Shown here: positions 7,395-23,840 of the stretch, piece by piece
How positions within the stretch are numbered: position 1 is the stretch's first letter
Layout of the letters: each line of letters opens with the position of its first letter
IMG/VR virus record: IMGVR_UViG_3300033143_003083
Location: 1 to 64,000 of that record
From: a virus
Direction: 5' to 3' (one strand)
DNA length: 64,000 nt
Notes under the pieces: model-generated
What the model was told of the DNA's origin: nothing
Database searches by the model: none
Seen by the model: the letters and a program-made list of their open reading frames with translations, nothing else
Translations under genes and position numbers: made by a program

Positions 7395-8104
7395 TAGGTA
7401 TTCTGATCAACAACAAACGTGTCAAGATCGATACCAGCATTATCAAAGGTATTATCCTTTATGGTTGTGATGATTTGCTCAATGACACCTGCACTTTCTT
7501 TCATTGGGTAATCTAACCATACATCCATCAGGAACGATAACGTCCACATGACCATACGTTCATCTACTGCTGCCGGTATATTTGTTTCTTGTGTTACTGC
7601 AACCAGTTCTATCTCAGTCAGATACGACCAATCAATGATGTTATCTGATTTCTGAATTGTTAATTTTGGATTGAACATCATCATGATCTGTTCAAGTAAC
7701 TGAAACATCTGTGTTGTGTTAGATGCATATATAGACAGATCCATAGAAAATCTATAGGGGACACCTATGACTTTTTGGTTGACCACCCGTTCACCATCAG
7801 AACCTCTTACTCTGGTAACATTTTCTTCATGGTAATTGGTACGTCTGTTTTCTGGATTTAACTCAATGGCAGTAAGAACAGTAGACATAAGAGGGAGTGA
7901 CGTGTTATATGACACACCTTCTTTGTGTAATACATTCGCAACTATCCTATCAGGTGAACCATAATATACTGGTGCAGTCTTCTGATCATTGTTGTTGTCA
8001 CCGTCACGATCAACACCATACTCAACTGAGAATCCTGAGAAGACTCTCATGAATTGTGTGATGTAATCTTTAAATGCGCCCTGATAATAAAAGTTATATG
8101 CCAT
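7394..8104 (-). CDS. Tail terminator/sheath stabilizer, T4 gp15-like
   Basis: FYY..FK.YI.QF.RVFS, VYYG, LPLMS, VPY, QLLEQI..FNP motifs. Confidence 0.8.
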   Translation of the reverse strand: MAYNFYYQGAFKDYITQFMRVFSGFSVEYGVDRDGDNNNDQKTAPVYYGSPDRIVANVLHKEGVSYNTSLPLMSTVLTAIELNPENRRTNYHEENVTRVRGSDGERVVNQKVIGVPYRFSMDLSIYASNTTQMFQLLEQIMMMFNPKLTIQKSDNIIDWSYLTEIELVAVTQETNIPAAVDERMVMWTLSFLMDVWLDYPMKESAGVIEQIITTIKDNTFDNAGIDLDTFVVDQNT

Positions 8105-8897: not shown

Positions 8898-8912
8898 TAT
8901 TTATCCTAAATA
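8898..8912. promoter_or_regulatory. Back-to-back T4-type late promoters (TAAATA on both strands)
   Basis: TATTTA 8898-8903 (minus) and TAAATA 8907-8912 (plus) between divergent genes. Confidence 0.65.
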
Positions 8913-8939
8913 CTCTATATACAAAATCGGAGTATTCAG

Positions 8940-10730
8940 TTGAAATTAATAGAAGTTTTTGCAGCAAAAGATGAAACCCTCACAGAAGGACTCAAATTTG
9001 GCAGAAAAGAAATTGCACTTGTTAACAGGGAAGCAAAAAATGTGAATGTGGGTATCGAATGGGAATACCATGTAAATTCTGAACTTCTTGAAAAAGACAA
9101 AGAAGATTTTGATGAACATGACATTAACGTTCTTGCTGATGAAAAAATGCATAGAGATATGGCACGTCAGAAAGTTGAATGGACTGACAATTTCATTAAT
9201 GATTACATGGAAGCATATCAGGTGGAGAGTAACACCACTGGTCTTAATTACATAAAACGTGTCAGCAGTGAATTTTCAAAACACGTTGATACTATTGTGA
9301 CATATGAAGACGATTTCGAAAGAATAATGGGTACTTATGAATCTGGTGATGATTTAGACGAAGAAGACAAAACTGTTATCAGAGAATACCTATATAGTGC
9401 TGTGACAGTAGGTGACAAGTTCAATACTATACAAGTAACCATGAATAACATTAACAGGGACAAAGAAGAAGAATTATCACAATGGATTCATCTTATCTCT
9501 GGTGGTAGCAGGAACATAGTCACTGAGTTAGATGAAGCTACTGACAACATGAATGAATTTCTGCAATGGGTAAAACGTTTAACAACTCTTGAAAAAACAC
9601 GTAGTGGTTTCACTAACTATGACGGACTAATTCAAAAATATGATCAAAAAGGTAAAGGATTCTTTGTTGAATTTTATACATCACAACAATGGTTAGAACA
9701 AGTACAAGTATTGGTAGGTGATGATGACACATGGACATTCAAAGTTCGCGCCCATTACACTATGGATGCAGTCGAAGCATGGGATGATCAATTAGCAACT
9801 AACCCAGAATTGTTATTAGGTTATGATCCAAAAAATCTTGATGAAACTCCTTTCTGGTCACAAGCAGAACAAGAACTCTCTGGCGAAGGTGATCCAATTC
9901 ACTCACAAGATTATGTTGATTACATTACCGAGATATTACAGAAACGTAATCCTTGGAATATTGATTTTAATGATATTGAACGTGTATTAATTGAAGCTGG
10001 TGTGACTGACGGTGTAGAAACTGTCTCTAAGCCTCTGAAGCTGAATGACTCATTAGCATTAAACGAACAGATGCTGACGCATATACGGGATGTTGGTTGG
10101 ACAGACGAAGGTACAGGACTTCATGTTAACGTTTCGTTAAGGGGTATGAACTTCAAACGAGATAACTTTAATCCTGCTAAATTAATATTACTGCTTAACC
10201 CTAAAATGTTACAGGAATTCTTCCAATTACGTGGGTATGTCGGTGATCAATTCGATGGACTCACTGATATGAAATTAAGTGATATGGCATGGGGTGTTGC
10301 CAAGTATGGTAGGGGGTCACTCATAGAACATTTCGAGAAGTCAGCATTTGACCACGACAAACACAGACAAGTTAATTTTAATAATTTCCATACTAAATCT
10401 TTTGATATGGATCTCAGTCTTGACAGAATTGAATTTCGTTATATTGGTGGTAAGGACTACGAACATCGTCAAAAAACGATTGAATGGCATATTTACCGCA
10501 TGGTTTACCTTACTATGGTCGCTTTTAACGAAGGATTTGCCGAAAAAGAGTATCTTAAGGAAATGCAAAAGGTATTAGACCGCGAATCTAAAGAGAAATT
10601 TGCTGGTATGTCGTTTTTTGAACTGGTTGAATGGTGGAAACGTAATCCTGATGGATCTTATAATGATTTGAACGTACATGCAACGATGGGTAAACGTAAT
10701 ACACTACATAAGAAGATAAGTGGAAGATGA
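8940..10730 (+). CDS. Putative amidoligase (COOH-NH2 ligase type) with acidic insert
   Basis: GIEWEY, ETVSKP, TGLHVNVS, IEFRYIGG motifs; GGAG SD, TTG start. Confidence 0.7.
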   Translation: MKLIEVFAAKDETLTEGLKFGRKEIALVNREAKNVNVGIEWEYHVNSELLEKDKEDFDEHDINVLADEKMHRDMARQKVEWTDNFINDYMEAYQVESNTTGLNYIKRVSSEFSKHVDTIVTYEDDFERIMGTYESGDDLDEEDKTVIREYLYSAVTVGDKFNTIQVTMNNINRDKEEELSQWIHLISGGSRNIVTELDEATDNMNEFLQWVKRLTTLEKTRSGFTNYDGLIQKYDQKGKGFFVEFYTSQQWLEQVQVLVGDDDTWTFKVRAHYTMDAVEAWDDQLATNPELLLGYDPKNLDETPFWSQAEQELSGEGDPIHSQDYVDYITEILQKRNPWNIDFNDIERVLIEAGVTDGVETVSKPLKLNDSLALNEQMLTHIRDVGWTDEGTGLHVNVSLRGMNFKRDNFNPAKLILLLNPKMLQEFFQLRGYVGDQFDGLTDMKLSDMAWGVAKYGRGSLIEHFEKSAFDHDKHRQVNFNNFHTKSFDMDLSLDRIEFRYIGGKDYEHRQKTIEWHIYRMVYLTMVAFNEGFAEKEYLKEMQKVLDRESKEKFAGMSFFELVEWWKRNPDGSYNDLNVHATMGKRNTLHKKISGR

Positions 10731-12244
10731 AGTTAACTAAATTATTTGAGTATTACGAACAAATTTTGCTTGAAGGTAAGATTGAACTGATTGCCAAGAA
10801 ACAAGGTAAGAAGATTAAGAAAGCATTATATAAAGACAAACCCAGAATGAATACATTAGGGCATTTTCATCATGCAGGTGGTAAATGGGATGGCAAGAGT
10901 AACATCAAAGACATATCTGACCAAGATGTTATTGGGGTACTCACATTATTTCAATCTAAAATTCATAAGAAGTATGTTCAATGGTTAGCTAATCGTTATG
11001 CCAACTATGAATTTAAACTTGAAGATTGGTCACAGGTACGAAGCGAATTAAAAGAATTTGATAAAGTTAAATCCAGATTAGCTATTAAAGATATCAATCA
11101 ATACAAGTCATTAACATCATTGTATTCAGCATTAGATGAATTCAAAGACAAAGATGTTAGGTCTAATACACAAAAAAGCAAAGATGAACGTAAGGCATTG
11201 TTTGATGATGGTGAAGCAGAATTGTTCTATAAAGATTCCCTTATAACCATTACAGTTCCTAAAACAGCGAACGCCGCATGTGAATTAGGTAAGGGTACTC
11301 GCTGGTGTACATCTGCCAGAACTCATAACGCATTTCATCAATACAGCAGACAAGGTGATCTGTATATTGTTGATACCAAGAAAGAAAAATTTCAATTGCA
11401 TTTTGAATCAGGTCAATTTATGGATGAAGAAGATGTTGAACTTGATTTCCCTGAATTATTTGAAAAATATCCGACAATGTATAAGTCATTAAAAAAAGCA
11501 TTTGGTAAAGATAAAGTTAAACAATTTTTGACACCTAAACAGGTATTAGAAGAAGATGGTTATAAGGGTTTAGTTGATGTACTCAAAAAACAAGAATTAA
11601 AGTTTGATGGTGACAACAATCTTATTATAACTGAACACCCAAATGTAGAAGATTTGATTGATGATTATGGTGATGATAGTGCCAAATGGGTAATAAAGGT
11701 ATTACAGGGAGAGGAAGAAGCATTTGGTAGTGATTATGTTCCTACTAGCAGTGATTTTGATTACCTCCTGTCTGCCGAACAAGAAAAAATATTAAACAAG
11801 TATGCTGCTGAAAAATATCCAGATGAATGGGAAGATGATGAAGATTGGTACGATGTATTAGAATCTAGTGGTGATGAAACACTGGACGAACTACGACAAC
11901 TTTACTGGCAAGCATCAGAAAGTGGTGCTCAATCTGAAATGTCTAAATTATTAGAGTCATCCCTAGAAGATTTTCATGAAGAATTTGAACTTGATCCTGA
12001 TGGACTTGAGTGGGACAAAAAATATAATGTTATCCTTCCTAAAGCTACCCTGATAGATTATGTTGAGAATCCCAAAAAATACGATTTACATATACCCACA
12101 ATAGATGCTTTGGTTGAGGCACATGGGGACACATTCTATTTTGATATAAGCATATCTTTGGTACATCCTCGTTATGGATATACTGATATGGATGATGAAT
12201 ATTTCAAATCTGAAGCAGACGCATTACTTAAGGATATCAAATGA
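10727..12244 (+). CDS. PcfJ-like domain protein, MKLxxLFE N-terminus
   Basis: PKTANAACELGKGTRWCTSA; acidic C-terminus; paralog of 20360. Confidence 0.55.
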   Translation: MKLTKLFEYYEQILLEGKIELIAKKQGKKIKKALYKDKPRMNTLGHFHHAGGKWDGKSNIKDISDQDVIGVLTLFQSKIHKKYVQWLANRYANYEFKLEDWSQVRSELKEFDKVKSRLAIKDINQYKSLTSLYSALDEFKDKDVRSNTQKSKDERKALFDDGEAELFYKDSLITITVPKTANAACELGKGTRWCTSARTHNAFHQYSRQGDLYIVDTKKEKFQLHFESGQFMDEEDVELDFPELFEKYPTMYKSLKKAFGKDKVKQFLTPKQVLEEDGYKGLVDVLKKQELKFDGDNNLIITEHPNVEDLIDDYGDDSAKWVIKVLQGEEEAFGSDYVPTSSDFDYLLSAEQEKILNKYAAEKYPDEWEDDEDWYDVLESSGDETLDELRQLYWQASESGAQSEMSKLLESSLEDFHEEFELDPDGLEWDKKYNVILPKATLIDYVENPKKYDLHIPTIDALVEAHGDTFYFDISISLVHPRYGYTDMDDEYFKSEADALLKDIK

Positions 12245-12831
12245 AACTTGACATACTATTCGAACGGACTATCTCTGATATCCGGTTAAAGAAAATTATC
12301 ACCAAGGGATTCATTGATAACCTTGATAATTACACAAATCATTTTCTTGATTATTTCAAAGTTTATAATAATGAATATGCAGATATGGATGATGGTGACA
12401 TCAAAGAATTACCTGCATATAAAGAATACTTACAGGATGAATTACGTAATAAGTTTGATGATGCATTCGAAGAAATTTTTAATAACATTCATCAGGGTAA
12501 GATCACATTGTATCGTGACATGACAGTGCGTAAGGATTGGGTGGAGCATCTTGCAAAACATCCTAACTCACGCATAGGTAAGTACTGGTCATGGGACGAA
12601 GCAGCAGCAGACGCTCACTGGGGTACGTTTGGTGACAAGGTGGCATCCATTGTCATTGAGATACCAGAAAAGTTTATTGATTGGGAAGAAACGTTTCAGG
12701 CGAATCTTCAGATTCAGGAAGAAAAAGAAATTACACTATTCAAGAATACTCCGATTAAGATTAAGGCAATCCTGAACAAAGGTAAACCTGAAGATATATC
12801 TTCAATTGAAAATAACAGGTACAAAGCATAA
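12241..12831 (+). CDS. Putative ADP-ribosyltransferase-fold protein
   Basis: LYR...YWSWD...EKEI (R-S-E pattern). Confidence 0.5.
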   Translation: MKLDILFERTISDIRLKKIITKGFIDNLDNYTNHFLDYFKVYNNEYADMDDGDIKELPAYKEYLQDELRNKFDDAFEEIFNNIHQGKITLYRDMTVRKDWVEHLAKHPNSRIGKYWSWDEAAADAHWGTFGDKVASIVIEIPEKFIDWEETFQANLQIQEEKEITLFKNTPIKIKAILNKGKPEDISSIENNRYKA

Positions 12832-13235
12832 TGAAACTCAATACATTATTTGAGAGCGAACTGAATGATAATAAGGATTATGTCCGTAAAATTTATGCAG
12901 CAGGACACCCGAACCCAATAGGTCGTGGTGTAATATTCGTCAAAGGAACTCAAGAAGAAAATGGGTATATCGTTGTTGAATTGAAACCGATGGTTAACTT
13001 TGTACACATAACCGAAATACGTGTTCTTGAGGGTAAGTACAAAGAAGGTTATGGTGATACTGTAATGAAGATACTTACTAAAGAAGCAGACAAGATGAAT
13101 GTCACCTTGCATTTAGCAGCAGTTCCATTGAAGGGCGAAGGTAAGACAATACCAAAAGGTAAGTTGAAATCATTCTATAAGAAGCATGGGTTCGTGTCTG
13201 AAGGTGGTGATGTTATGCGTAGAGAACCTAAATGA
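12831..13235 (+). CDS. GNAT-family acetyltransferase
   Basis: KEGYGDTVMKIL...AD...LKSFYKKHGF. Confidence 0.7.
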   Translation: MKLNTLFESELNDNKDYVRKIYAAGHPNPIGRGVIFVKGTQEENGYIVVELKPMVNFVHITEIRVLEGKYKEGYGDTVMKILTKEADKMNVTLHLAAVPLKGEGKTIPKGKLKSFYKKHGFVSEGGDVMRREPK

Positions 13236-13597
13236 AACTCAATCTATTATTTGAGAATGTTGAATACCAAGCATTCAGTAAGTACATCACAAAGAAGTAC
13301 AATGTAAGAACATTCTTCATCAATCAATCAGGGAATGACATTGAACTCAACAGCATAATCATAGCAAAAGAAAATCAGAAAGAAGGTATCGGGTCTGATG
13401 TGATGAAAGAACTCATTAAGTTTGCTGATAGTAAGGGTAAGAGAATCATATTGGGTGTTGGTGTAAAGGATAGCATTCATGGTACTACGTCCAGATCGCG
13501 TCTGGTTAAGTTCTATAAGCGGTTCGGATTCAAAGAGAACAAAGGGCGTAAGAAAGATTTCAGTGTATCTGCCGGTATGATACGCAATCCAAAGTAA
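13232..13597 (+). CDS. GNAT-family acetyltransferase
   Basis: QKEGIGSDVMKEL...AD...LVKFYKRFGF. Confidence 0.75.
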   Translation: MKLNLLFENVEYQAFSKYITKKYNVRTFFINQSGNDIELNSIIIAKENQKEGIGSDVMKELIKFADSKGKRIILGVGVKDSIHGTTSRSRLVKFYKRFGFKENKGRKKDFSVSAGMIRNPK

Positions 13598-13852
13598 TTA
13601 TAATTTATTCATCAGCATAAGACTTTCACCCAGTTCAGATATCTTTATATGATTACGTTCAGAGCATAGTTGTTGGGTGATAACCTGTGTTGAATCACCT
13701 AACGTCATTCCAATATCATCAGCAGTAACATAAACGATATACCCTGACTCCAAATGACTATACCATAACAAAACATTAGTTTTATAAGAATTACCAAGGT
13801 CAAACGCTTTGTTCAGATCAACAGTACTCCAAAAATCTAAGAAGTCTTTCAT
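13598..13852 (-). CDS. Small hypothetical protein (ends MNKL)
   Basis: ATGA-coupled start. Confidence 0.6.
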   Translation of the reverse strand: MKDFLDFWSTVDLNKAFDLGNSYKTNVLLWYSHLESGYIVYVTADDIGMTLGDSTQVITQQLCSERNHIKISELGESLMLMNKL

Positions 13853-14085
13853 AACATCCACCACTCATGCAAGTGTTCATTCTCAACAATGTAATTCCAT
13901 GCGTCTTCATACGTAGTATAACTTCTGCGGCCTGATGGTGGTATCTTATGTTCCCTTATGAATTCAACTAAAATAGCTGCCCCACCATGATAATTTAGTT
14001 TACTAAAAACATTAGGGAACAGGTGCTCATTAAGTTTGGGGTATTGCCTCTCCACTTTTTCATGAAAATCTATACTCTTATTCAC
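13849..14085 (-). CDS. YPEL/WWML family protein
   Basis: YPKL..HLF...W.YI..NEHLHEWWML. Confidence 0.75.
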   Translation of the reverse strand: MNKSIDFHEKVERQYPKLNEHLFPNVFSKLNYHGGAAILVEFIREHKIPPSGRRSYTTYEDAWNYIVENEHLHEWWML

Positions 14086-14318
14086 AACATCCACCAGATA
14101 TGTTTGTCTTCGTTGTCACAGATGTATTTCCATATAATTTCATACGTTAAATTATCTTTGGTTGGACAATTGCATTGGTGATTCACAAAATCAAGTACTA
14201 ACGACAAGTTTTCAAAGGTATCATCTAATACATAAGAGTACCCTGCAAAAATGTGGTCATGCAATTCAGGGTAATAATCATACACTAATGATTTAAAATG
14301 GTCTAAATCTTTAATCAA
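14082..14318 (-). CDS. YPEL/WWML family protein
   Basis: YYPELHDHIF...IWKYICDNEDKHIWWML. Confidence 0.75.
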   Translation of the reverse strand: MIKDLDHFKSLVYDYYPELHDHIFAGYSYVLDDTFENLSLVLDFVNHQCNCPTKDNLTYEIIWKYICDNEDKHIWWML

Positions 14319-14319
14319 C

Positions 14320-14484
14320 TTACTTACCTGTTATTTTCTCATACTGGTCAACAACATCAAAGAATAAATCATATGCGGCATCACCGGACGTGTCAGCAGC
14401 TTCACGTGCTTCTTTCGAACTCCCCCATTGATCTACCCATTCCATAGTTTTATCAAACCATTCAATTTTTTCTTCGTCTGTCAT
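14320..14484 (-). CDS. Small hypothetical protein, 54 aa (not in ORF track)
   Basis: MTDEEKIEWFDK...EKITGK; GGTGA SD. Confidence 0.55.
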   Translation of the reverse strand: MTDEEKIEWFDKTMEWVDQWGSSKEAREAADTSGDAAYDLFFDVVDQYEKITGK

Positions 14485-14491
14485 ATATCAC

Positions 14492-14722
14492 CTATAATTC
14501 ATCAAATAATTGTATACTGAGTTCAGCTTCAACCCTGTCATGAATTTCTTGTGCAGTACCTGCAATCGTCTTAAAGATCATTGTATTTTTTGCATATGAG
14601 TACACAGTACCCCCAACCCCACGAGTAAATTCAATGATGTTATAATTGCTGCCACCCACACTGTCAGTAATAATATACTTTTTGTGCTGGTCATCTATAA
14701 TTATTGGTTTGCCCAGACTCAT
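14492..14722 (-). CDS. Small hypothetical protein (paralog of 14722..14982; ends FDEL)
   Basis: Shared TDS..G..Y.I.E and AQ..HD..E. Confidence 0.65.
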   Translation of the reverse strand: MSLGKPIIIDDQHKKYIITDSVGGSNYNIIEFTRGVGGTVYSYAKNTMIFKTIAGTAQEIHDRVEAELSIQLFDEL

Positions 14723-14982
14723 TATAATTTTCTCATTAGACGTTTAGCATAAGTTTTTTCTATTTCATCATGTAGGAATTGTGCTGAATCATTACATTGT
14801 CTCATATAATTACCTTTGAGATCATATGCAACCCAATAATTATAAGGTAATATTAAAGGTGTTATCTTAAAATTACCTTTATACTCACGTTCGACAATTT
14901 CATAATCATGACCGGCAAAACTATCTGTTACCTTATGATAGATTTTGCCCTTACGATGTTTAATTCGTCTGCCTAACATCAT
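14722..14982 (-). CDS. Small hypothetical protein (ends MRKL)
   Basis: Paralog of neighbour; ATGA-coupled start. Confidence 0.65.
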   Translation of the reverse strand: MMLGRRIKHRKGKIYHKVTDSFAGHDYEIVEREYKGNFKITPLILPYNYWVAYDLKGNYMRQCNDSAQFLHDEIEKTYAKRLMRKL

Positions 14983-15209
14983 AACTCCAATGTGATAAAA
15001 ACTGATGTGGGGGCAAATATTACCTTGCCACAATTTGACCATGTTGCTAATTCTCTTACGACTGATACCGGACGGTCTTCAGCAACATTCTTCCTGAAAT
15101 GATTACAGTATGATAACCATATGTCCCACACACAAAATGTAGCAGACATACTGGAATCACTGACTATACCACACATACCCAGACCATTAACTGAGATTGA
15201 ATTTCTCAT
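14979..15209 (-). CDS. Small hypothetical protein (ends TLEL)
   Basis: GGAAGGA SD; coupled to next gene. Confidence 0.55.
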   Translation of the reverse strand: MRNSISVNGLGMCGIVSDSSMSATFCVWDIWLSYCNHFRKNVAEDRPVSVVRELATWSNCGKVIFAPTSVFITLEL

Positions 15210-15342
15210 TATCCTTCCTCTCAATTTCGTCTAAACGGTCAGCAATACACTTCATCAGTACCGATTTGGTCACAGGGTTCTGAGTATAGTGGTAATCGCG
15301 GAATAAGTCACCTAATGTTGCTGGATTTGCGTCCTTACTCAT
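15187..15342 (-). CDS. Small hypothetical protein, 51 aa (not in ORF track)
   Basis: MSKDANPATLG...; ATGA overlap with upstream stop. Confidence 0.5.
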   Translation of the reverse strand: MSKDANPATLGDLFRDYHYTQNPVTKSVLMKCIADRLDEIERKDNEKFNLS

Positions 15343-15683
15343 AACTCACCCCATTCTTCATAAGCATCATAAAAAGCATATGCAAGTTCTGTAAATTTGA
15401 ATTCAACAAAATAAACGGTTCTTTTAGGTTTAAGTTTTCTCCCACCGACACACTCAAATCTACCCTTAGTAGTTCTTTCATAGACATGAACATCAGACAA
15501 ACACGAACCTGTACTAATATGAATAATTTCATCTGTGTGATTCATTTTAACGTTGTTTTCAAAACCATTTGCATTAGTTTTCGTCATATAGATTCTGAAC
15601 TTATTAGGTTCAATGACTGTGACACTCTTAGATGCATCACGGTCATGCATGAATTCACATAATTTACCAAGATAATTACTCAT
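15339..15683 (-). CDS. Hypothetical protein (ends WGEL)
   Basis: ATGA-coupled start. Confidence 0.6.
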   Translation of the reverse strand: MSNYLGKLCEFMHDRDASKSVTVIEPNKFRIYMTKTNANGFENNVKMNHTDEIIHISTGSCLSDVHVYERTTKGRFECVGGRKLKPKRTVYFVEFKFTELAYAFYDAYEEWGEL

Positions 15684-15904
15684 AACATCCACCATTCATG
15701 TAGATCTTCATTGTCATTAATATACTGCCAGATAGTTTCGGGTGTGGTAAGATGCATCATATTGTTTTTCTTCAAAAATATTCTGAGTGCTGTGAATTCT
15801 AATACATTATTATCAAATATATGATTATAAAGTTCAGGATAATAGCGGCGCATATTAATCATTATATCACCGACACCAATAACATGTTTACCCTTATATC
15901 TCAT
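15680..15904 (-). CDS. YPEL/WWML family protein
   Basis: YYPELYNHIF...NEDLHEWWML. Confidence 0.8.
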   Translation of the reverse strand: MRYKGKHVIGVGDIMINMRRYYPELYNHIFDNNVLEFTALRIFLKKNNMMHLTTPETIWQYINDNEDLHEWWML

Positions 15905-16143
15905 AACATCCACCATGCATGTAAGTCTTCGTTATCTCTAATATATTGCCATATCTCAACATACTCGTTACCTGAATGTAGTGAGATACCTGATTTTAAT
16001 CTTGTCTTCTTCATAAAGATTGTAAGTGATGTATATGGGGTACGACCTTCACCATATACATATATATAAAGTTCTGGATAATAATGTTTCATATTATTCA
16101 GTAAAGAAGTCATGGTAAGAACGGAGCCATCATCAAATGTCAT
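15901..16143 (-). CDS. YPEL/WWML family protein
   Basis: YYPELY...NEDLHAWWML. Confidence 0.8.
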   Translation of the reverse strand: MTFDDGSVLTMTSLLNNMKHYYPELYIYVYGEGRTPYTSLTIFMKKTRLKSGISLHSGNEYVEIWQYIRDNEDLHAWWML

Positions 16144-16361
16144 AACATCCACCAATCGTGTAATTCTCTGTTGCACCTGATATGATCCCATATAGCTTCA
16201 ACTGAGGTAAGATGTATTATATTGTTTTTCTTCAAAAAAATTCTGAGTGCAGTATGAGGCAGATCATCATTATCGAATATATGAGTATAAAGTTCAGGAT
16301 AAAATGATTTTATACTATCCATTAACCCTCTTAGATGTATCACATGTTCGCCATTACTCAT
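16140..16361 (-). CDS. YPEL/WWML family protein
   Basis: FYPELYTHIF...ELHDWWML. Confidence 0.8.
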   Translation of the reverse strand: MSNGEHVIHLRGLMDSIKSFYPELYTHIFDNDDLPHTALRIFLKKNNIIHLTSVEAIWDHIRCNRELHDWWML

Positions 16362-16591
16362 AACATCCACCAATCATGCTTATCTTTATTCACAACAATG
16401 AAATCCCAGATTTCTTGGTAATCCCATACCGACACCTTACCATCACCATGACTACTGATAAAGATGATAAGCGAGTCGTAAGGGTCATTACGACCACCAA
16501 ATATGTATTTGTAAAGTTCTGGGTAATAATATTTCATACTATGTTTCAGTTCATCCATAATACGGACTGAAGATGATGGTATTCTACTCAT
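16358..16591 (-). CDS. YPEL/WWML family protein
   Basis: YYPELYKYIF...DKHDWWML. Confidence 0.8.
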   Translation of the reverse strand: MSRIPSSSVRIMDELKHSMKYYYPELYKYIFGGRNDPYDSLIIFISSHGDGKVSVWDYQEIWDFIVVNKDKHDWWML

Positions 16592-16821
16592 AACATCCAC
16601 CAATCATGCATATCTTCCTTTGCAACAATGTACGCCCATATTTCATTATAAGACAACCTATTAATATCATATGATATCTTATTCATAAAGATATCAAGTG
16701 CTTCATATGAGGCAGCATACCCAAAGAACACATGAGCATGAAGGTCAGGATAATAACGTGCCATATTATGCTTCAGGGCATTCACTGAGAAAATAGGCGC
16801 AGGATGCTTCGTATCATTCAT
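16588..16821 (-). CDS. YPEL/WWML family protein
   Basis: YYPDLHAHVF...DMHDWWML. Confidence 0.8.
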   Translation of the reverse strand: MNDTKHPAPIFSVNALKHNMARYYPDLHAHVFFGYAASYEALDIFMNKISYDINRLSYNEIWAYIVAKEDMHDWWML

Positions 16822-17193
16822 TTAATCGACTGCTTCCAGTACTTCTATGTTCCAGAAGCGACACCCATGTAAGTCCCTGTCAAGCATCACAGCACCCTCA
16901 CCATAATCTTTTATGTATGACACTATATGTGCAGTACGATGGTTGTCACGACCTTCAGGACAGCTATGGTTTAATTTAGACGGTGGTTGATTTAACTTAA
17001 CCTTTGTTCCCACTGGGGTACGTTTAGCTCTTTCTGCCAGTTCCGCAATTTCAATTGCATAATTCAAAGCCCATCGTAACTTTTTAGCTTCCTTAATGGA
17101 AACTCTAGTCTGAGAATTACCCCTGCTGAGAAGAATAGGTTTGTCAGGTCTGCTTTCTCGTGGTTTATGCTTTGCTGTGAATTCTTCTGGCAT
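16822..17193 (-). CDS. Hypothetical protein
   Basis: 123-aa ORF, AGGAG SD. Confidence 0.6.
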   Translation of the reverse strand: MPEEFTAKHKPRESRPDKPILLSRGNSQTRVSIKEAKKLRWALNYAIEIAELAERAKRTPVGTKVKLNQPPSKLNHSCPEGRDNHRTAHIVSYIKDYGEGAVMLDRDLHGCRFWNIEVLEAVD

Positions 17194-17209
17194 CAGATTA
17201 CTCCTAAGT

Positions 17210-17284
17210 TGGAAGGTGTGGGGGGATTCGAACCCCCATGCAACGGATTTGCAATCCGCGACCTAGCCGTTCGGTCACACACCT
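17210..17284 (-). tRNA. tRNA-Cys(GCA)
   Basis: Cloverleaf AGGTGTG/CACACCT, GCGGA-TTGCAAA-TCCGT, GGGGG-TTCGAAT-CCCCC, U73, encoded CCA. Confidence 0.95.
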
Positions 17285-17486
17285 ATAATTTTATAATAAT
17301 TAGTAACATAATAAAAAATGACATTCCGAATATTAATGATCCAATCATTGCTAATGTTGTCATACTATTATCATTTTTGATTAGTTTGTATACTACCGCA
17401 AGTCCAATTCCATAGACAGTACCACTGAATAATCCAGCTAATACCATTGATTGAAATATTATTAATAAAATCATACTATTCTCCAA
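17283..17486 (-). CDS. Small membrane protein (2 TM)
   Basis: Two hydrophobic stretches. Confidence 0.5.
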   Translation of the reverse strand: MENSMILLIIFQSMVLAGLFSGTVYGIGLAVVYKLIKNDNSMTTLAMIGSLIFGMSFFIMLLIIIKL

Positions 17487-17489
17487 TAA

Positions 17490-17840
17490 TTATAATAATT
17501 TAGCAATACTGTCAGAGAACACTTTCATTGCTTTCAATACAACATCACGTTCTTCTTCGTCTGGCATTGCTGCTGTTGGGTCTTCCATGAATTCACGCAC
17601 ACCCTGTGCAATTGTAGTCAGTGGTGAATCGAATAATGATTTTGTCTCAGCAGCACTTATTGCTTCATTGAAGCATTTAACGCGGGTAGCTGCCACACTT
17701 AATTTATGATGCACTTCAGGTAAATTATCAGTCCAATTACCCGTTACGTGTGATGCTGCATCTTGTACTTTAATAACAAGAGCATCACGTTCAGCAGCAG
17801 CCTCATTACGCATTTTTGTAAGCAAAGTTAAAGTTGTCAT
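17490..17840 (-). CDS. Hypothetical early protein
   Basis: First gene after sigma70 promoter; GGAG SD. Confidence 0.65.
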   Translation of the reverse strand: MTTLTLLTKMRNEAAAERDALVIKVQDAASHVTGNWTDNLPEVHHKLSVAATRVKCFNEAISAAETKSLFDSPLTTIAQGVREFMEDPTAAMPDEEERDVVLKAMKVFSDSIAKLL

Positions 17841-17866
17841 ATTTGTTCTCCCAGTTGATGAAGGGA

Positions 17867-17895
17867 ATTATAGATTGAAAACTTCCCTGTGTCAA
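17867..17895 (-). promoter_or_regulatory. Early sigma70-type promoter
   Basis: TTGACA-17nt-TATAAT, spacer ends AAGTTTTCAATC. Confidence 0.9.
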
Positions 17896-17918
17896 ATCTT
17901 ATTTCAATTGATATTAAC

Positions 17919-17924
17919 TAAATA
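17919..17924 (+). promoter_or_regulatory. T4-type late promoter
   Basis: TAAATA 5 nt before ATG 17930. Confidence 0.7.
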
Positions 17925-17929
17925 CCACT

Positions 17930-18640
17930 ATGAATTTACTACAATTATTCGAAAATGTCCAAAATGTCAATCTGGATCAGCTATACCGGAAATTTAACCA
18001 GAAATACTTCAATGGTCAGTTACCAGTGGTCAAAACAAAATGGTCTAATAAGCGTAGGTCAATGGGGGCAGTAGTTGCCAACAGAGTCAAAGCAACTGGG
18101 GTAATATCAATCAAACATCTGGAAATTTCCAAGCATCTTGATATTGACGAAGAAAAATTGAGTGCATTAATGTTACATGAAATGATTCATGTGTATGTGT
18201 TATTCGTATTACAACTGAGTGAACGTAGTGGGGGTCACGGTACAGAGTTCCATAAGAAACGGGGAGAACTTAATCGTAAGACTCCATTTGTGATTCCTGC
18301 ATCTGAAGATTATAATGAGTTTGAGGTATCACCCCATATAAAAATTAAACCTACTGTGATCATTCTCAGAACAGGTAGTGGTGGTACATGGGTACATGCC
18401 ATATCAGAAAAAGGATTCCAGAAAGATTTCGAAAAGATTATTGGACGATTTGTTCAAGAACATGAATATGAAGTTTTTGTGTCTGCTGCAAGTAATATTA
18501 CTAAGATACCTGTTGCACGTGTGCTCACAAAAAAAGGTATGCCGTATTATAGAATGAATGATAAAGAAATACAGTTAATCAGGGACGGTATGACCAAGAT
18601 GATTGTTAAAATAGACAAGAACGGAAATATATCATCATGA
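17930..18640 (+). CDS. SprT-like zinc metalloprotease
   Basis: FNQKYFNG.LP, HEMIH, HG.EF. Confidence 0.8.
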   Translation: MNLLQLFENVQNVNLDQLYRKFNQKYFNGQLPVVKTKWSNKRRSMGAVVANRVKATGVISIKHLEISKHLDIDEEKLSALMLHEMIHVYVLFVLQLSERSGGHGTEFHKKRGELNRKTPFVIPASEDYNEFEVSPHIKIKPTVIILRTGSGGTWVHAISEKGFQKDFEKIIGRFVQEHEYEVFVSAASNITKIPVARVLTKKGMPYYRMNDKEIQLIRDGMTKMIVKIDKNGNISS

Positions 18641-19032
18641 AACTTAGTCATATAAAACAACCGGATCTGTTCGGTATTCAGACAAAACCTATGTCAATAG
18701 TAGGGGTATATGACCGGATGATCCTGAGAGTCATCGAACCAACGAATAAGAGCGCATTTAAGCAAGATTGCACATGTCATAAGCTGAGTATCAACTATAT
18801 CGTTAAACACGCCAAACCTTCTGACAGACTCGTTATGGTGGGGGTAGGTAATACTGTTACTCATAGCTTCGTGGTAAATATAAGTGGGAAGATAATTGCT
18901 GATACTAATATAAGTAATGATCCGACTTATGATGGAAAGACTTATACAGTGGGTAAGGATAAGTTTAAGCACATGTGGAATAAAACAGCACGTGATATCG
19001 CCAGAGATATTAAAGAGATATTAGTTAAATGA
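18637..19032 (+). CDS. Hypothetical, possible Cys-His-Asp papain/transglutaminase-like fold
   Basis: CH...HSFV...D pattern like neighbour 19029. Confidence 0.35.
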   Translation: MKLSHIKQPDLFGIQTKPMSIVGVYDRMILRVIEPTNKSAFKQDCTCHKLSINYIVKHAKPSDRLVMVGVGNTVTHSFVVNISGKIIADTNISNDPTYDGKTYTVGKDKFKHMWNKTARDIARDIKEILVK

Positions 19033-19448
19033 AGTTAGAACAATTATTAGAAAGTGCAAGTAAAAATATGATTAAGGCTGCGGCAAACGTCACTGAAAAA
19101 TTATTAAAGATTGGTGGTGAGCGTGTTGTCAGGCCAGAAGAAGATGAAGACATCGTATTAATGTCCCAGAAAGGAAAGTTGTGGAAGCATAAGGCAACTA
19201 AATTGGATGGTGTACCATATAACGACTGCCACCGTGTTACCGCAAATGTATGTCAGGTAAATAAAAGATTTAGCGCAATAACGGGTTTTGCATTATCAAA
19301 GGATGGGTTATGGAGGCCACATTCTTTTATGTTTGATACTGTTGATAAATCAATACTAGAACCTACTCCAATCATACGTGTTAAATATTGGGGGGTCTTA
19401 ATGAGTGGTAAAGATGCTGAACGATTTATAAAGAGTAACGCCAGATGA
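19029..19448 (+). CDS. Possible papain/transglutaminase-like protein
   Basis: NDCH...GFAL...W.PHSF...ILEPT. Confidence 0.45.
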   Translation: MKLEQLLESASKNMIKAAANVTEKLLKIGGERVVRPEEDEDIVLMSQKGKLWKHKATKLDGVPYNDCHRVTANVCQVNKRFSAITGFALSKDGLWRPHSFMFDTVDKSILEPTPIIRVKYWGVLMSGKDAERFIKSNAR

Positions 19449-19765
19449 AGTTAGAACAATTATTTGAATCCCGCCAGAAACAATACGGCAGACCATTACC
19501 GGAAACTGGATATCAATATAAGAAGGTAGAAATTTTCAGAGCACTTGATGCTAATGAAGATTACTTCCTGCCAGAAGATTATGTGACCCGTCTGAAGAAG
19601 TTTGCAGTGGGTCATGCTGATCATAACGTTGTTGTACTGGAAACCCCTCAGAAAGTTATCAGGGCAATTGTGAATGCGTCTGATGTATATGAAGCAACGA
19701 ATGCAGGTGAATACTTTTATGATGGTAAGAAAGTAAAGGGACGAGTAATTTATGAAACTGATTAA
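19445..19765 (+). CDS. Possible ADP-ribosyltransferase-fold protein
   Basis: IFRA...DYVT...FA..HA...V.ASDV...EYFY. Confidence 0.45.
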   Translation: MKLEQLFESRQKQYGRPLPETGYQYKKVEIFRALDANEDYFLPEDYVTRLKKFAVGHADHNVVVLETPQKVIRAIVNASDVYEATNAGEYFYDGKKVKGRVIYETD

Positions 19766-20363
19766 CCTATTCGAAAGTGCAAGTAAAAATCGTGACATGA
19801 TTGTAATTGATGTACAACCATTCTATCACAACCATCACAAACATATCGTCCCAAGATTAATCGAACATGTGAATCAGATGACAGGTGATGTCTTATGGTT
19901 TCATAATGGTTGTAATGTGGGGATTGAAGATACGGTACATGAACAAAAAATGTACCTGCTTGAAAATGGAATGGACGAAGATAGATTAGACGAAATAACA
20001 TTTGTAGAAAAAGATTATGCATTTTTCAGAGGTTGGATGGATAATGGTATTGATGAAGATATTATTATTGCTGCTGGTAAATACATGTACAAGAATCGTA
20101 TTAATGACAGTCGTGATTTGGAAGTAGAAGATTTTGTGAAATTCTTACCCAGACCCGAACGTGATACATTCACAGACGAAGATGAATTATATAAAAATGA
20201 AGATGCATTACATTGGCCTGACATTGATATTAATAAATTGAAAAGATACAACAACGCTTACTTAGTAGGTGGTGGCAGGGATGAATGTCTTGAAGAAATG
20301 AGATTACTTCTGGAAATGGTTGGGATGAAGTACAAATTATTAAATGAGTTTATATACGGATGA
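19752..20363 (+). CDS. Cysteine-hydrolase/isochorismatase-like protein
   Basis: VIDVQP...EK...GGGRDECL. Confidence 0.55.
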   Translation: MKLINLFESASKNRDMIVIDVQPFYHNHHKHIVPRLIEHVNQMTGDVLWFHNGCNVGIEDTVHEQKMYLLENGMDEDRLDEITFVEKDYAFFRGWMDNGIDEDIIIAAGKYMYKNRINDSRDLEVEDFVKFLPRPERDTFTDEDELYKNEDALHWPDIDINKLKRYNNAYLVGGGRDECLEEMRLLLEMVGMKYKLLNEFIYG

Positions 20364-21964
20364 AGTTAATACAATTATTAGAGCAACTTGAATGGTTATT
20401 TGAAAATCGTAAGATTGAACTGATTGCCAAGAAGCAAGGCCAGAAGATTATGAAAGCGCATGGACGTGATCGTACTCATGATCAGCGACTTATTGATTCT
20501 ATCTTTGGTATGACTCCCATTGTACATCGTGGTGGGGCGAAAGGTGGTGATGAATTAGTACAAGACAGTGCCAAGAAAATTATTGAATTCTTCCAAACTA
20601 AAATTCATAAGAAGTATGTCCAATGGATTGCCAACCGTTACATGAACCGAGAATTCCAATTGGAAGATTGGAAAACTATTAAGGACAACCTGAAAGATTT
20701 CGACCGTATTAAAAATAAATTATCTGTTAAAGATATCAATCAATACGACTCTATGGTTGCCTTGGATAACGCCATTGATTCCCTGAAAGATAAAGATGTC
20801 AGATCCAACAAACAAAAAGATAAAGAAGAACGTGCTCAATTATTCAAAGATAAAGAAGCTATCCTTTTCTATAAAGATTCTGATATTAAGATTGAGATAC
20901 CCAAGACTGAAGAAGCTGCATGTGTTCTGGGTAAGGGTACTCGCTGGTGTACATCAGCACGTAATCATAATCAGTTCGCCAATTATAACAGAGAGGGTGA
21001 TCTATATATCATCACCACCAAAGACGGCAAGAAGTTCCAATTCCATTTACATACTAAGCAGTTCATGGATGAAGCAGACCACGAAATTAAGATGACTGAA
21101 GTACTTGAAGAATATCCTTCAATCCTTAAAGCAATACCAAAACTTGTTGACAGTTTGTCTATGTTCGACAGGGCAAATATAAATGATATGAGTCAGAATG
21201 AAGTTGAAGGTATGATTAAGGAATGGATTGATGACGGATTACACCAGATTGATATGCATGATGATACCACTGTAGTCATTGAATCATACCAAGACTTAGA
21301 TAAATTCTTTCGCCAATATGATTTCATGGAATTGTCCAGTATGCTTTATTACATAGATGACCCAAGTACGTTAGAAGAAGAAATGGATACTGACAAAGCT
21401 AGAATGGACATTTCGAAATATCTTAATCAATCTATTATTGATTTGATACATGACCGATTATTAGATCAACCTCAACATGAATTATTTGATATTAACACCA
21501 ATGACAAGGTATTCAATGCATTAAACAATTATACAACACTATCAAGACAGATCCTGAATGAAATTGTTGAAAATATGACTGAGGAATCAGCAGAAGCAAT
21601 GGAAAAATATCTTAAGGATGGTATGGAAGGTGAAGGATTCGATCATGGTGTCATGGGATTCTTATTTGATACTGAACGTTCCCACTCAAGCGGATATTTA
21701 CTTGTAACTGACGAGGCCAGAAATTTTTACGACAGTACTTATTCGATGTCAATGGAGTTATACGAACTTGCAACTAACTTAACTGAAACTGGATGGGATG
21801 ATATATCAGATGATGAATTTGAACATGAAATGAGAAGATTCTTCGGTGAAGAATTTGACCATAACCCAGATTTAAAATCCCCAAGTGATTTCTATCATAC
21901 TCAGAACATGGATAATCTTGAAAATAGAATAGAAAGGGTTATGAAAGAGTGGAAAGGGTTATGA
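20360..21964 (+). CDS. PcfJ-like domain protein, paralog of 10727
   Basis: PKTEEAACVLGKGTRWCTSA. Confidence 0.55.
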   Translation: MKLIQLLEQLEWLFENRKIELIAKKQGQKIMKAHGRDRTHDQRLIDSIFGMTPIVHRGGAKGGDELVQDSAKKIIEFFQTKIHKKYVQWIANRYMNREFQLEDWKTIKDNLKDFDRIKNKLSVKDINQYDSMVALDNAIDSLKDKDVRSNKQKDKEERAQLFKDKEAILFYKDSDIKIEIPKTEEAACVLGKGTRWCTSARNHNQFANYNREGDLYIITTKDGKKFQFHLHTKQFMDEADHEIKMTEVLEEYPSILKAIPKLVDSLSMFDRANINDMSQNEVEGMIKEWIDDGLHQIDMHDDTTVVIESYQDLDKFFRQYDFMELSSMLYYIDDPSTLEEEMDTDKARMDISKYLNQSIIDLIHDRLLDQPQHELFDINTNDKVFNALNNYTTLSRQILNEIVENMTEESAEAMEKYLKDGMEGEGFDHGVMGFLFDTERSHSSGYLLVTDEARNFYDSTYSMSMELYELATNLTETGWDDISDDEFEHEMRRFFGEEFDHNPDLKSPSDFYHTQNMDNLENRIERVMKEWKGL

Positions 21965-22437
21965 AATTATCCCAATTCTTACAAGAAGCTATAAGAAATC
22001 GTACCCTAATCAAAGGACAGCCCCTCTCAGGCGATTACTCCCATTACATACGTAGTATTACCGAGTTAAAAGACCTTCTTAAAGAGCATTACGGCAATTC
22101 TAAGATGACTTTAGACAATATTATCAAACTTTATGCTGAACATGACATGAAACTCACTGATAATTTGCTTGAATTTGAGTTTACCGTTAAGGAACTTGAT
22201 AAGTACAAGGAATGGAAGCGTACCAGAAACGATTCTAACCTTTCCACTGACGAATGGGATGAAATGAAAGCGGATATTAAGAAAAACGGTATACGGGATT
22301 ACGGTGTGCTTGGTATGTATCAGAAAAGGAACGGTGATGTCCTTACTTATATCGGTGAAGGTAATCACAGGTTGGCAATCGCAAAAGAACTTGGCATTAA
22401 GAAGATGAAAATGCGTCTTTTTTACGGGAAAGCCTAA
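21961..22437 (+). CDS. ParB/Srx-like domain protein
   Basis: DIKKNGI...GEGNHRLAIAKELG; start MKLSQFLQE. Confidence 0.7.
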   Translation: MKLSQFLQEAIRNRTLIKGQPLSGDYSHYIRSITELKDLLKEHYGNSKMTLDNIIKLYAEHDMKLTDNLLEFEFTVKELDKYKEWKRTRNDSNLSTDEWDEMKADIKKNGIRDYGVLGMYQKRNGDVLTYIGEGNHRLAIAKELGIKKMKMRLFYGKA

Positions 22438-22788
22438 ATGAAACTTGATGAACTGTTTGCATGTCATGAAGAAGTCTTACTGGAAGGTAAGATTGAACGA
22501 ATAATTGAAAAACATCAGGTGGCAATCCTTAAAGCGTTCAGTAAAGAGTCACCGGATGTCGTTGGCAATGTAAATCATATAATGAATGAATTTAAAGAGA
22601 CACATCCAAAATATATCCAATGGATCACCAATCGTTACATCAAAGGTGAGTTCATAATGGAAAATTTACCTGAACTTAAGATGAAATTAGAAGAATTTGA
22701 TAAAATTAAAGACAAACTTCAGTCTAATGAGAAGGATATCAACCGTCACAAAACATTAGAGTCGTTTTATAAGGTTATCACAGGGTAA
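22438..22788 (+). CDS. Short paralog of the N-terminal domain of 10727/20360
   Basis: LLEGKIE, KYIQWI.NRY, EFDKIK.KL, KDIN. Confidence 0.7.
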   Translation: MKLDELFACHEEVLLEGKIERIIEKHQVAILKAFSKESPDVVGNVNHIMNEFKETHPKYIQWITNRYIKGEFIMENLPELKMKLEEFDKIKDKLQSNEKDINRHKTLESFYKVITG

Positions 22789-23029
22789 TCAATACCGTCT
22801 TATGGTTATCTGGTAATTTATCATCAATAAAGGGTAAGTATTCACCACTCAATCTATATTTCCCTCCCCTCCACAGAATTTTACCAGTTTCATTATTCCT
22901 TTTGGTTAATATTACGTCTGTGCCAAACACAATTTCACCGTCAAACTCAACTGCAACATATCGTACACCAGTAAGATCAACATCCATTAAGTAAAACCAT
23001 ATCATTTCTATGAATTCATCGTCAGTCAT
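22778..23029 (-). CDS. AVDxDG family protein
   Basis: MTDDEF...YVAVEFDGE...W...VLITL. Confidence 0.75.
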   Translation of the reverse strand: MTDDEFIEMIWFYLMDVDLTGVRYVAVEFDGEIVFGTDVILTKRNNETGKILWRGGKYRLSGEYLPFIDDKLPDNHKTVLITL

Positions 23030-23307
23030 AATTTTATCATCACATTCTTATAATTTGGGGGGGTGTCATCTGGTGATCTGGTGAGATACGTACCAGTAAG
23101 AACCGATTCTGCATCATTTGAACGCCAAATGAAATGATGAGTGTTCTTATTATAACTGTTTGTCGTATTATGAATACCTCTTACTAATCTGTCACCATGT
23201 GATACTACAATCTCACCATCAAAATCTACTGCAAGATACTTTGCACCAGTTAAGTTGTAGTCAATTAGTTTGAATAATATTAATTGTTCGAAATCATCAT
23301 CAGTCAT
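23026..23307 (-). CDS. AVDxDG family protein
   Basis: YLAVDFDGE...VMIKL. Confidence 0.75.
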   Translation of the reverse strand: MTDDDFEQLILFKLIDYNLTGAKYLAVDFDGEIVVSHGDRLVRGIHNTTNSYNKNTHHFIWRSNDAESVLTGTYLTRSPDDTPPNYKNVMIKL

Positions 23308-23579
23308 AATTTTATTAGCGTATCTTTCCAGTTAAGTGGTCTGGTCATTGTTGTTATCAATTGAAAGTTTGCTGCTGATGTCAACGCATCAGCTACTTCT
23401 TCTGCTGGCGTCCATTGACTTCTGAATGAGTTATTTTTTAGTTTTTGATTAATAGGTTCTAATCCGTACACATACAAATTACCATCACTATCAACCGCAG
23501 CATAATTAAACCTGTCGATGTTATAATCACATAACAACAGATGAAATTTCATTAACTCTTTGTATTCAATGGTTGTCAT
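23304..23579 (-). CDS. AVDxDG family protein
   Basis: YKELMKFHLL...AAVDSDG...NWKDTLIKL. Confidence 0.75.
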   Translation of the reverse strand: MTTIEYKELMKFHLLLCDYNIDRFNYAAVDSDGNLYVYGLEPINQKLKNNSFRSQWTPAEEVADALTSAANFQLITTMTRPLNWKDTLIKL

Positions 23580-23839
23580 AATTTAAAAAGCATTTCAGCG
23601 TAATTATCCATAACCGGATTCAAATATACATCAGTACAAAAAGGAATCATATGATCCGGTGGTGGTTTCCCACCCCAAACCTTCTGACCGTTAGGGGGAA
23701 TTGTGTTATCTTCAATTGTCATCAGATAACTACTTGTCACAATCTCACCATCATAATCAATACCAATGTATTTCACATTAGTTAAATCATAATCTATTAA
23801 CTTATACATGATAAGTTCAAACCAATCATCCTTAGTCAT
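23576..23839 (-). CDS. AVDxDG family protein
   Basis: YIGIDYDGE...MLFKL. Confidence 0.75.
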   Translation of the reverse strand: MTKDDWFELIMYKLIDYDLTNVKYIGIDYDGEIVTSSYLMTIEDNTIPPNGQKVWGGKPPPDHMIPFCTDVYLNPVMDNYAEMLFKL

Positions 23840-23840
23840 T

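Follow-up and report, generated by a model that had tools for sequence, protein, structure and literature searches.

Thirteen clustered phage proteins share an N-terminal MKLxxLFE leader that likely acts as a capsid-targeting signal

The internal head proteins of T-even phages are diverse, and the capsid targeting sequence (CTS) is the sole part that they have in common. The first ten residues of IPIII are enough for packaging, with residues 4 and 7 of the T4 CTS acting in targeting and residues 8 and 10 in processing (PMC9026906, PMC3012670). Here we describe a comparable short leader in the IMG/VR virus record IMGVR_UViG_3300033143_003083, whose first 64 kb out of 77,172 bp are referred to as the window. 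In two plus-strand operons (8940-13597 and 17930-22788), 13 consecutive genes all start with MKLxxLFE or a near variant. This tag is probably a T4-type capsid-targeting propeptide that would be cut after Leu-x-Glu. The mechanism is already known from T4, and the proposal is an extension of known biology and no new principle. The literature searched gave no description of a tag with this consensus on enzyme cargo from clustered genes of a distantly related jumbo phage, nor of its lineage-specific variants across many uncultured phages.

As in T4, a short N-terminal tag sits on unrelated proteins, and T4 has enzyme cargo too, the Alt ADP-ribosyltransferase (ART). T4 has three small basic internal proteins plus Alt from scattered genes, whereas the window has 13 clustered genes in two operons, whose predicted products are mostly enzyme-sized (up to 596 amino acids) and often acidic. 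The T-even internal-protein loci resemble the window in that a conserved tag is combined with changing cargo, and an arms-race reading would fit both (PMC3012670, PMC9026906). However, the T-even loci encode small proteins that are likely inhibitors, whereas the window encodes catalytic domains of the kinds found in polyvalent proteins, and these cargo families are found again in many uncultured jumbo phages, under tags specific to the lineage. In the phiKZ-like giants SPN3US and 201phi2-1, head-internal proteins are cut after Glu by a T4-related protease, as we propose here, but the motif is A/S/G-x-Glu and the propeptides, often longer than 100 residues, have no common short tag (PMC5694885). 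The small P3 residue of the phiKZ type is not present in the window tag, where P3 is Leu. Loading in the Dar system of phage P1 is hierarchical and depends on partner proteins, and is not known to use a common cleavable tag of eight residues. What the Dar system shares with our proposal is that anti-defence proteins (DarA, DarB, Hdf and others) are loaded into the head and delivered with the DNA (PMC9024508, PMC12810830). Polyvalent proteins overlap with the window in their repertoire (GNAT, ART, zincin-like peptidase, ParB-like), their genes are likewise neighbors of virion genes, and both groups of proteins are predicted to be delivered along with the DNA (Iyer et al. 2017, PMC5512222). In the window, operon 1 abuts the neck and gp15-like genes. 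Polyvalent proteins carry 2-15 domains per chain; in the window, as the initial annotation had claimed, each domain has a gene and a tag of its own.

The tagged genes and their products, numbered here as cargo 1 to 13, are the following (a slash is set behind the glutamate of a hydrophobic-x-Glu motif).

8940 to 10730, plus strand: cargo 1, 596 amino acids, MKLIEVFAAKDETLTE/G, divergent amidoligase (glutamine-synthetase-like)
10727 to 12244, plus strand: cargo 2, 505 amino acids, MKLTKLFE, family with a GxGTRWCT motif, first labeled PcfJ-like
12241 to 12831, plus strand: cargo 3, 196 amino acids, MKLDILFE, ADP-ribosyltransferase-like fold
12831 to 13235, plus strand: cargo 4, 134 amino acids, MKLNTLFE, weak GNAT, paralog of cargo 5
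13232 to 13597, plus strand: cargo 5, 121 amino acids, MKLNLLFE, GNAT acetyltransferase
17930 to 18640, plus strand: cargo 6, 236 amino acids, MNLLQLFE, SprT-like zinc metallopeptidase (HEMIH)
18637 to 19032, plus strand: cargo 7, 131 amino acids, divergent tag MKLSHIKQ
19029 to 19448, plus strand: cargo 8, 139 amino acids, MKLEQLLE
19445 to 19765, plus strand: cargo 9, 106 amino acids, MKLEQLFE, match to the C-terminal tail of a ParB-type PHROG
19752 to 20363, plus strand: cargo 10, 203 amino acids, MKLINLFE, Rossmann-like enzyme
20360 to 21964, plus strand: cargo 11, 534 amino acids, MKLIQLLE, paralog of cargo 2
21961 to 22437, plus strand: cargo 12, 158 amino acids, MKLSQFLQE, weak ParB-like
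22438 to 22788, plus strand: cargo 13, 116 amino acids, MKLDELFACHEEVLLE/G (start MKLDELFA), N-terminal fragment paralog of cargo 2 and cargo 11

Every one of the 13 starts reads as the initial annotation had listed it. M1 and L3 are invariant, K2 is found in 12 of the 13 and L6 in ten. Position 7 is Phe in nine genes and Leu in three; Glu occupies position 8 in nine and position 9 in one further gene, and genes 1 and 13 carry L-x-E at residues 14-16. We searched all called genes of the 77-kb contig with the expression ^M[KNS][LF]..[LIFV][FLVI]. The motif proved to be concentrated on the two operons, with matches in 12/13 operon genes versus 1/132 other genes (Fisher p=1.5e-15) and at 2/575 internal Met positions, and the tail and neck genes of the contig are without it. 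Without their first 10 residues, the 13 proteins group into 10 families by BLAST, with cargo 2, 11 and 13 and cargo 4 and 5 as paralogs.

Because synonymous codons vary at the conserved positions (L3 TTA/CTT/CTC/CTG, L6 TTA/CTA/CTG, F7 TTT/TTC, E8 GAA/GAG), selection acts on the peptide and not on the DNA. On account of the same synonymous codons we reject a DNA repeat or recombination cassette, and the DNA flanking the tagged genes shows no upstream or downstream identity. It is also very improbable that the common start has no addressing role and stems from translational coupling with 5' codon preferences, or from a common 5' cassette inherited by recombination. Nine of the 11 internal genes do overlap the preceding stop as ATGA, which forces a second codon starting with A (K or N), and an AAA second codon favors initiation. 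However, minus-strand genes with the same ATGA overlaps lack the motif, L3, L6, F7 and E8 are kept despite synonymous changes and without flanking DNA identity, and orthologs of cargo 3 and cargo 10 vary x4 and x5 while keeping L, L, F and E. At the level of sequence, these comparisons show a tag that is selected as a peptide, can be separated from the domains of the cargo and is similar to the starts of T4-type head proteins.

This resemblance concerns both the hydrophobic residues and the end of the tag. Hydrophobic-x-Glu is the substrate motif of gp21 (PMC9026906), and the tag ends in it as L-[FL]-E8 in 9/13 genes, at E9 in one and as L-x-E16 in two. In the T4 record, ipII and ipIII start with MKTYQEFIAE/A, ipI with MKTFKEF..ITE/A, gp22 with MLKEQLIAE/A, gp24 with MAKINELLRE/S, gp67 with MEGLIE/A and gp21 with MNEPQLLIE/T. 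The window tag and the T4 CTS both place hydrophobic residues at i, i+3 and i+4 (L3, L6, F7 compared with T4 Y4, F7, I8), followed by an acidic P1 residue. A Sec or Tat signal was ruled out, since the tag has only eight residues, contains Glu and has no hydrophobic core.

Related large phages link such starts to the head. Each of the five large records searched, which carry tagged loci with the same cargo family, encodes a member of Pfam Peptidase_S77, the family of T4 gp21. The major capsid protein (MCP) in that clade starts with MS(Q/K)xLLE(S/G), with a second ..ALLE/G about 12 residues further on, and, directly after the portal gene, at least 15 of 37 modules have a gene of about 75 codons whose product starts with MKLFEMF[DE], while other modules have MILNELYQ there. 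As a side observation, the MCP of about 396 amino acids found in the relatives G001-G003 is 80-89% identical across the best 80 of about 600 matching IMG/VR contigs (L142-L221), and, judged by these sequences, this uniform protein marks a very large, uniform clade of uncultured jumbo phages. PA5oct has MKINDIITE/G (EST35_0150), MKIKDILVE/S (EST35_0238) and, in the MCP, MSNRLFES..ALTE/GLKG, to be compared with ..ETLTE/GLKFG in cargo 1. Its homolog of cargo 2 (MKLFEVFTLYED) is annotated as detected by electrospray ionization tandem mass spectrometry (ESI-MS/MS) in CsCl-purified virions.

Under the capsid-targeting interpretation, both operons would be transcribed late. The tag would be an added amphipathic turn, one face of which carries L3, L6 and F7, and it would bind the proteins to the scaffolding core while the prohead assembles. 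A prohead protease of the gp21 type (S77) would then cut after Leu-Phe-Glu8, or after Leu-x-Glu16 in genes 1 and 13, and the mature enzymes would remain inside the head and pass into the host along with the DNA. The predicted cargo would comprise an amidoligase, two GNATs, an ART-like protein, an SprT-type metallopeptidase, a possible cysteine hydrolase and others, among them two members and one N-terminal fragment paralog of the GxGTRWCT family, and such a set would correspond to phage polyvalent proteins in unbundled form.

The gene neighborhood raises a different option, in which the tag addresses another destination or partner, such as the tail lumen, the baseplate, a dedicated chaperone or an intracellular phage compartment. 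Operon 1 indeed lies beside neck and tail genes and not head genes, the PA5oct homolog of cargo 2 is encoded just downstream of the tail sheath and tube genes, and the location of a protein in the virion cannot be read from sequence alone. We nevertheless regard this option as unlikely: the tail and neck proteins of the contig are themselves untagged, and the tag ends in the head-protease motif and is similar to the starts of capsid, scaffold and portal-adjacent proteins. Moreover, the T4 alt gene has baseplate genes as neighbors although its product belongs to the head (PMC5512222).

Homologs of the cargo proteins indicate that the tag can be exchanged. In cargo 5, residues 9-121 align to positions 2684-2797 of phrog_10691, a polyvalent-protein PHROG of 3925 positions (E 7.8e-30), and the alignment begins directly behind the tag at residue 9. 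The SprT domain of cargo 6 begins at residue 16. AlphaFold2 (AF2) models of cargo 10 and cargo 3 place the tag as a detached low-confidence segment before a confident fold, in cargo 10 as a separate helix. Homologs of cargo 10 start with MKLINLFE, MKLDQLLE and MKLQQLFE in close relatives and with MKLIEA, MRANEFVTE, MKPSELVE or MLSFKELLAE in distant phages, and some are tagless and start at the conserved VVDVQP strand. Cargo 3 homologs carry differing leaders, with hydrophobic-x-Glu right ahead of the domain in almost all of them. Homologs of the ParB-like and GNAT cargo start with MKIREILAE and MLSFKQFTEE (the cargo 12 homolog in locus L046 with MKIREILAE). Altogether, the homologs of five cargo families in other phages either have a different local tag, commonly MRAxEFIxE, or lack a tag, and what stands just ahead of the conserved domains is nearly always hydrophobic-x-Glu. 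By these comparisons, the tag tracks the genome and not the cargo, as a portable add-on.

The recurrent hydrophobic-x-Glu ahead of the domains would also fit a pro-peptide that is cut by a phage protease to activate or time toxic enzymes in the cell, a zymogen control without packaging, and the ART-like, SprT and GNAT cargoes could harm the producing cell. We consider this quite unlikely, and less likely than another destination, since a segment of eight residues that stands apart from the fold would hardly inhibit ten different folds. The one protease known to have such specificity in T4-type phages works inside the prohead (PMC9026906). A recognition sequence for a modifying enzyme, as in ribosomally synthesized and post-translationally modified peptides (RiPPs), has hardly any probability in our view: the contig has no radical-SAM (PF04055) match, a gene of the CxxxCxxC type is near only 1/16 tagged arrays in other loci, and the tag lacks a core of Cys, Ser or Thr on which such an enzyme could act. 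Capsid targeting, which the initial annotation had put forward, is the best-supported reading; its support comes through comparison, namely from the portable tag, the hydrophobic-x-Glu, the S77 protease in relatives and the similar starts of head proteins.

Several observations weigh against capsid targeting. Glu8 is missing in 4/13 genes, and gene 7 is without an early hydrophobic-x-Glu. K2 is partly forced by the ATGA stop/start overlaps (a second codon starting with A), which does not apply to L3, L6, F7 and E8. The T4 CTS is longer than the tag by two residues and carries Phe at P4, whereas the tag carries it at P2. The amidoligase and GxGTRWCT families keep a tag-like N-terminus in many homologs (about 30 and 18 N-termini read, respectively), and the tag could be partly intrinsic to these two families. 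Amidoligase homologs start with MKLEQLNE/GLRFG, MKLNNLFE....LTE/GLRFG and similar sequences (MKLxxLxE/GLRFG), and members of the GxGTRWCT family with MKLxQLLE, MNIxxLLE or MRAxEFLTE, and in PA5oct with MKLFEVFTLYE (EST35_0205). The virion list of PA5oct also contains ribonucleotide reductase and thymidylate synthase, which makes its "structural" label weak. The 77-kb fragment, which is 24% complete, holds no head gene or prohead protease. A profile search for the MCP of the jumbo clade matched more than 600 contigs, and none of the best 80 came from the samples of the close relatives; hence, the head module of the window lineage was not recovered. A look-up of public sequencing runs, RNA included, listed none. 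Finally, the promoter-like site of operon 2 is only 5 nucleotides away from the ATG.

Variants of the tag on two isolated genes, pointed out in the initial annotation, are both real.

31573 to 31800, minus strand: isolated tagged gene, 75 amino acids, MNFEQLVEE, very acidic
62042 to 62338, minus strand: isolated tagged gene, 98 amino acids, MSFTDILE, very basic (Arg/Lys-rich)

The latter had been labeled gp68-like, a label that we drop, since BLAST found no similarity to T4 gp68. The protein has a weak match to phrog_3503, "head scaffolding protein" (E 8.9e-4), and is a candidate internal or core head protein.

For the timing of expression, three promoter-like elements are relevant.

8906 to 8913, plus strand: late-promoter-like CTAAATAC, 33 nucleotides upstream of operon 1, in the gap between this operon and the divergent neck gene
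17918 to 17925, plus strand: late-promoter-like CTAAATAC, 11 nucleotides upstream of the start codon of operon 2
17867 to 17895, minus strand: sigma-70 promoter, perfect TTGACA-17-TATAAT (12/12), heading the minus-strand small-gene array back to back with operon 2

A TAAATA late promoter had been claimed for both operons, and the site does precede both. TAAATAC(T/C) lies 11-33 nucleotides upstream of all four tagged units. (C/G)ATAAATACT is found about 30 nucleotides upstream of both isolated genes, as CATAAATACT at about this distance from the 31800 gene and as GATAAATACT at -30 of the 62338 gene, and an extended TAAATACTCT(A/G)TATA is common to the sites upstream of operon 1 and of the 31800 gene. 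Tail genes have ATAAATAG about 39 nucleotides upstream of their starts. As a word in the window, TAAATAC is not over-represented (14 found versus 15.9 expected), nor is TATAAATA enriched as a bare word, and only the position before genes is informative. The four short upstream stretches contain four of the 14 TAAATAC sites, compared with about 0.02 expected by a rough post-hoc estimate. The strongest sigma-70-like match upstream of operon 1 (10/12) lies inside the neck gene, and among the matches listed there is none close upstream of operon 2. Late expression of the tagged operons is plausible from this arrangement, and the minus-strand small-gene array is probably early. Separately, TAAATA ends about 5-6 nucleotides before the ATG in three genes (1736-2218 and 7394-8104 on the minus strand, 17930 on the plus strand), leaving no room for a Shine-Dalgarno sequence, and these genes could have leaderless or very short-leader late mRNAs.

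The identity of the cargo could be settled to different degrees. An amidoligase had been proposed for cargo 1, which is borne out by transitive homology: 7/33 homologs match Pfam Amidoligase_2 (best E 1.2e-18), and E40xE42, H395 and E498xR500 are invariant in the family. Its start, MKLIEVFA, uses a TTG codon that is kept in a 95% identical relative, and a 75% relative has an ATG start and a better tag, MKINNLFE. In another relative (L003 1-971, minus strand), the ortholog of cargo 1 is split into two overlapping open reading frames (ORFs), one of 88 amino acids and a longer open one, by either a frameshift or an assembly error. The SprT protease likewise holds (cargo 6, Pfam SprT-like, E 1e-12, residues 16-117). 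Of the two proposed GNATs, cargo 5 is solid, with Pfam Acetyltransf_7 and Acetyltransf_1 above cut-off, and cargo 4 is weak (Pfam E 0.018; phrog_10691 E 5.4e-5; BLAST to cargo 5 E 4.7e-5).

Two ART-like proteins had been named, and the fold finds moderate support for cargo 3. The AF2 model has a mean predicted local distance difference test (pLDDT) score of 83.6, Foldseek returned IcmQ as top match (probability 0.99) followed by PARP, Tpt1 and Rhs ART toxins, and R92, S117 and E161xE163 are family invariants. A homolog of cargo 3 with 62% identity (P0087), on a 1.8-kb contig, is labeled "Candidatus Babeliales bacterium" at NCBI and is probably phage DNA binned into a metagenome-assembled genome. 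The cysteine hydrolase claim is weaker. Cargo 10 has a confident model (pLDDT 89) and the family invariants D20, K87 and C179, but the Foldseek matches (2b34, 3hb7) are weak, and it is possibly an isochorismatase-like cysteine hydrolase. The same applies to the ParB-like assignment of cargo 12, with E 0.041 to phrog_26377 and E 6e-4 to phrog_3147; its true start is the ATG at 21961, the first start of the ORF being a GTG at 21949. Residues 26-101 of cargo 9 match phrog_2579 (E 4.1e-8). Cargo 11 is 53% identical to cargo 2 over 248 amino acids. For this group (cargo 2, 11 and 13) the PcfJ-like label did not hold up, as neither the window proteins nor 20 family members match Pfam PF14284. Cargo 7 gave no family match in the Pfam and PHROG searches, PDB sequence searches with cargo 1, 10 and 12 were without match, and Pfam at relaxed E gave only noise for 8/10 cargo proteins.

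Tagged arrays are not confined to the window. The GxGTRWCT family occurs at more than 547 loci in IMG/VR, and 16 of the 79 loci retrieved have 3-8 tagged genes, commonly with MRA[RK]EF[IL]xE. Clustering of the tagged proteins from six loci (e.g., L090 and L074) gave 4-7 unrelated tagged families in each, and gene starts carry the general motif 24-fold more often than internal Met positions do. An array of another kind was seen in a 311-kb record (L031 10762-13843), where six tandem paralogs, all starting with MNLYNLHxKPESLDHH, directly follow a short GxGTRWCT gene; these are paralogs, unlike the arrays with diverse cargo.

In the 250-kb relative G001, a 1434-residue protein (L025 8786-13090 = G001:C1:222281-226585) fuses the GxGTRWCT domain (about 358-597) to the amidoligase C-terminal domain (about 1117-1307), which are encoded by separate neighboring genes in the window, and tagged single-domain genes follow the fusion gene. 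This fusion of the cargo 1 and cargo 2 domains, together with the alignment of cargo 5 to phrog_10691, supports the view that the cargo represents unbundled polyvalent-protein domains, a link that the initial annotation had drawn. The wider claim, that short lineage-specific tags mark a whole set of capsid-loaded, injected proteins across a large clade of uncultured T4-related jumbo phages, with the same domains interconverting between fused polyvalent and unbundled tagged states, is a tentative one, to which we give somewhat less than an even chance.

Only in a few cultured model phages is it known which proteins are injected besides the DNA. If the capsid-targeting interpretation is true, an N-terminal motif would list them for this phage (amidoligase, acetyltransferases, ART-like enzyme, metallopeptidase and several unknown families), and lineage variants such as MRAxEFIxE would do likewise for many uncultured jumbo phages. 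Should the wider claim hold, the tag could be used to predict, from sequence alone, the "injectome" of hundreds of phages that are beyond cultivation. As a capsid address, it would provide a candidate list of effectors of host takeover and anti-defence in the first minute. It would further give an evolutionary link between single-domain cargo and polyvalent proteins, and new short packaging tags for foreign proteins in large capsids.

The record from which the window was taken has a completeness of 24% (CheckV) and a G+C content of about 36% in the window, and we infer a jumbo phage genome of roughly 300 kb. T4-type modules on the contig comprise a gp15-like tail sheath stabilizer, a neck protein, an RNA ligase/tail-fibre attachment protein, a split family-B DNA polymerase, a single-stranded DNA-binding protein (SSB), a clamp, a DnaB-type helicase and ribonucleotide reductase. 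The two polymerase genes (58206-59087 and 59470-61185, minus strand) are separated by two small ORFs. The gp15-like protein is about 30% identical to its counterparts in PA5oct-type and other jumbo phages, and the phage is only distantly T4-like, with no close cultured phage. A near-identity search of the phage collection returned no relative at the DNA level, the contig-end protein as query found no relatives, and the close IMG/VR relatives are only short contigs bearing cargo gene 1. Two relatives of about 75% identity carry inserted GIY-YIG homing-endonuclease genes (L002 1-1995 and L003 1012-3185) in the gap between the gp15-like and neck genes and in that between the neck gene and cargo 1, where the window has none.

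The minus-strand array between the operons (13849-16821) consists of about eight small tandem paralogs (77-96 amino acids) that end in ...WWML, many of them starting with MVDVM through overlap with the previous gene, and two further ...WWML paralogs lie near 52 kb (52007-52611, minus strand). A second family of small minus-strand paralogs, at 22778-25117 and 27613-27843, ends in ...LIKL or ...FDEL. In most of the small genes on the minus strand, Leu is the last residue where the stop codon overlaps the following ATG.

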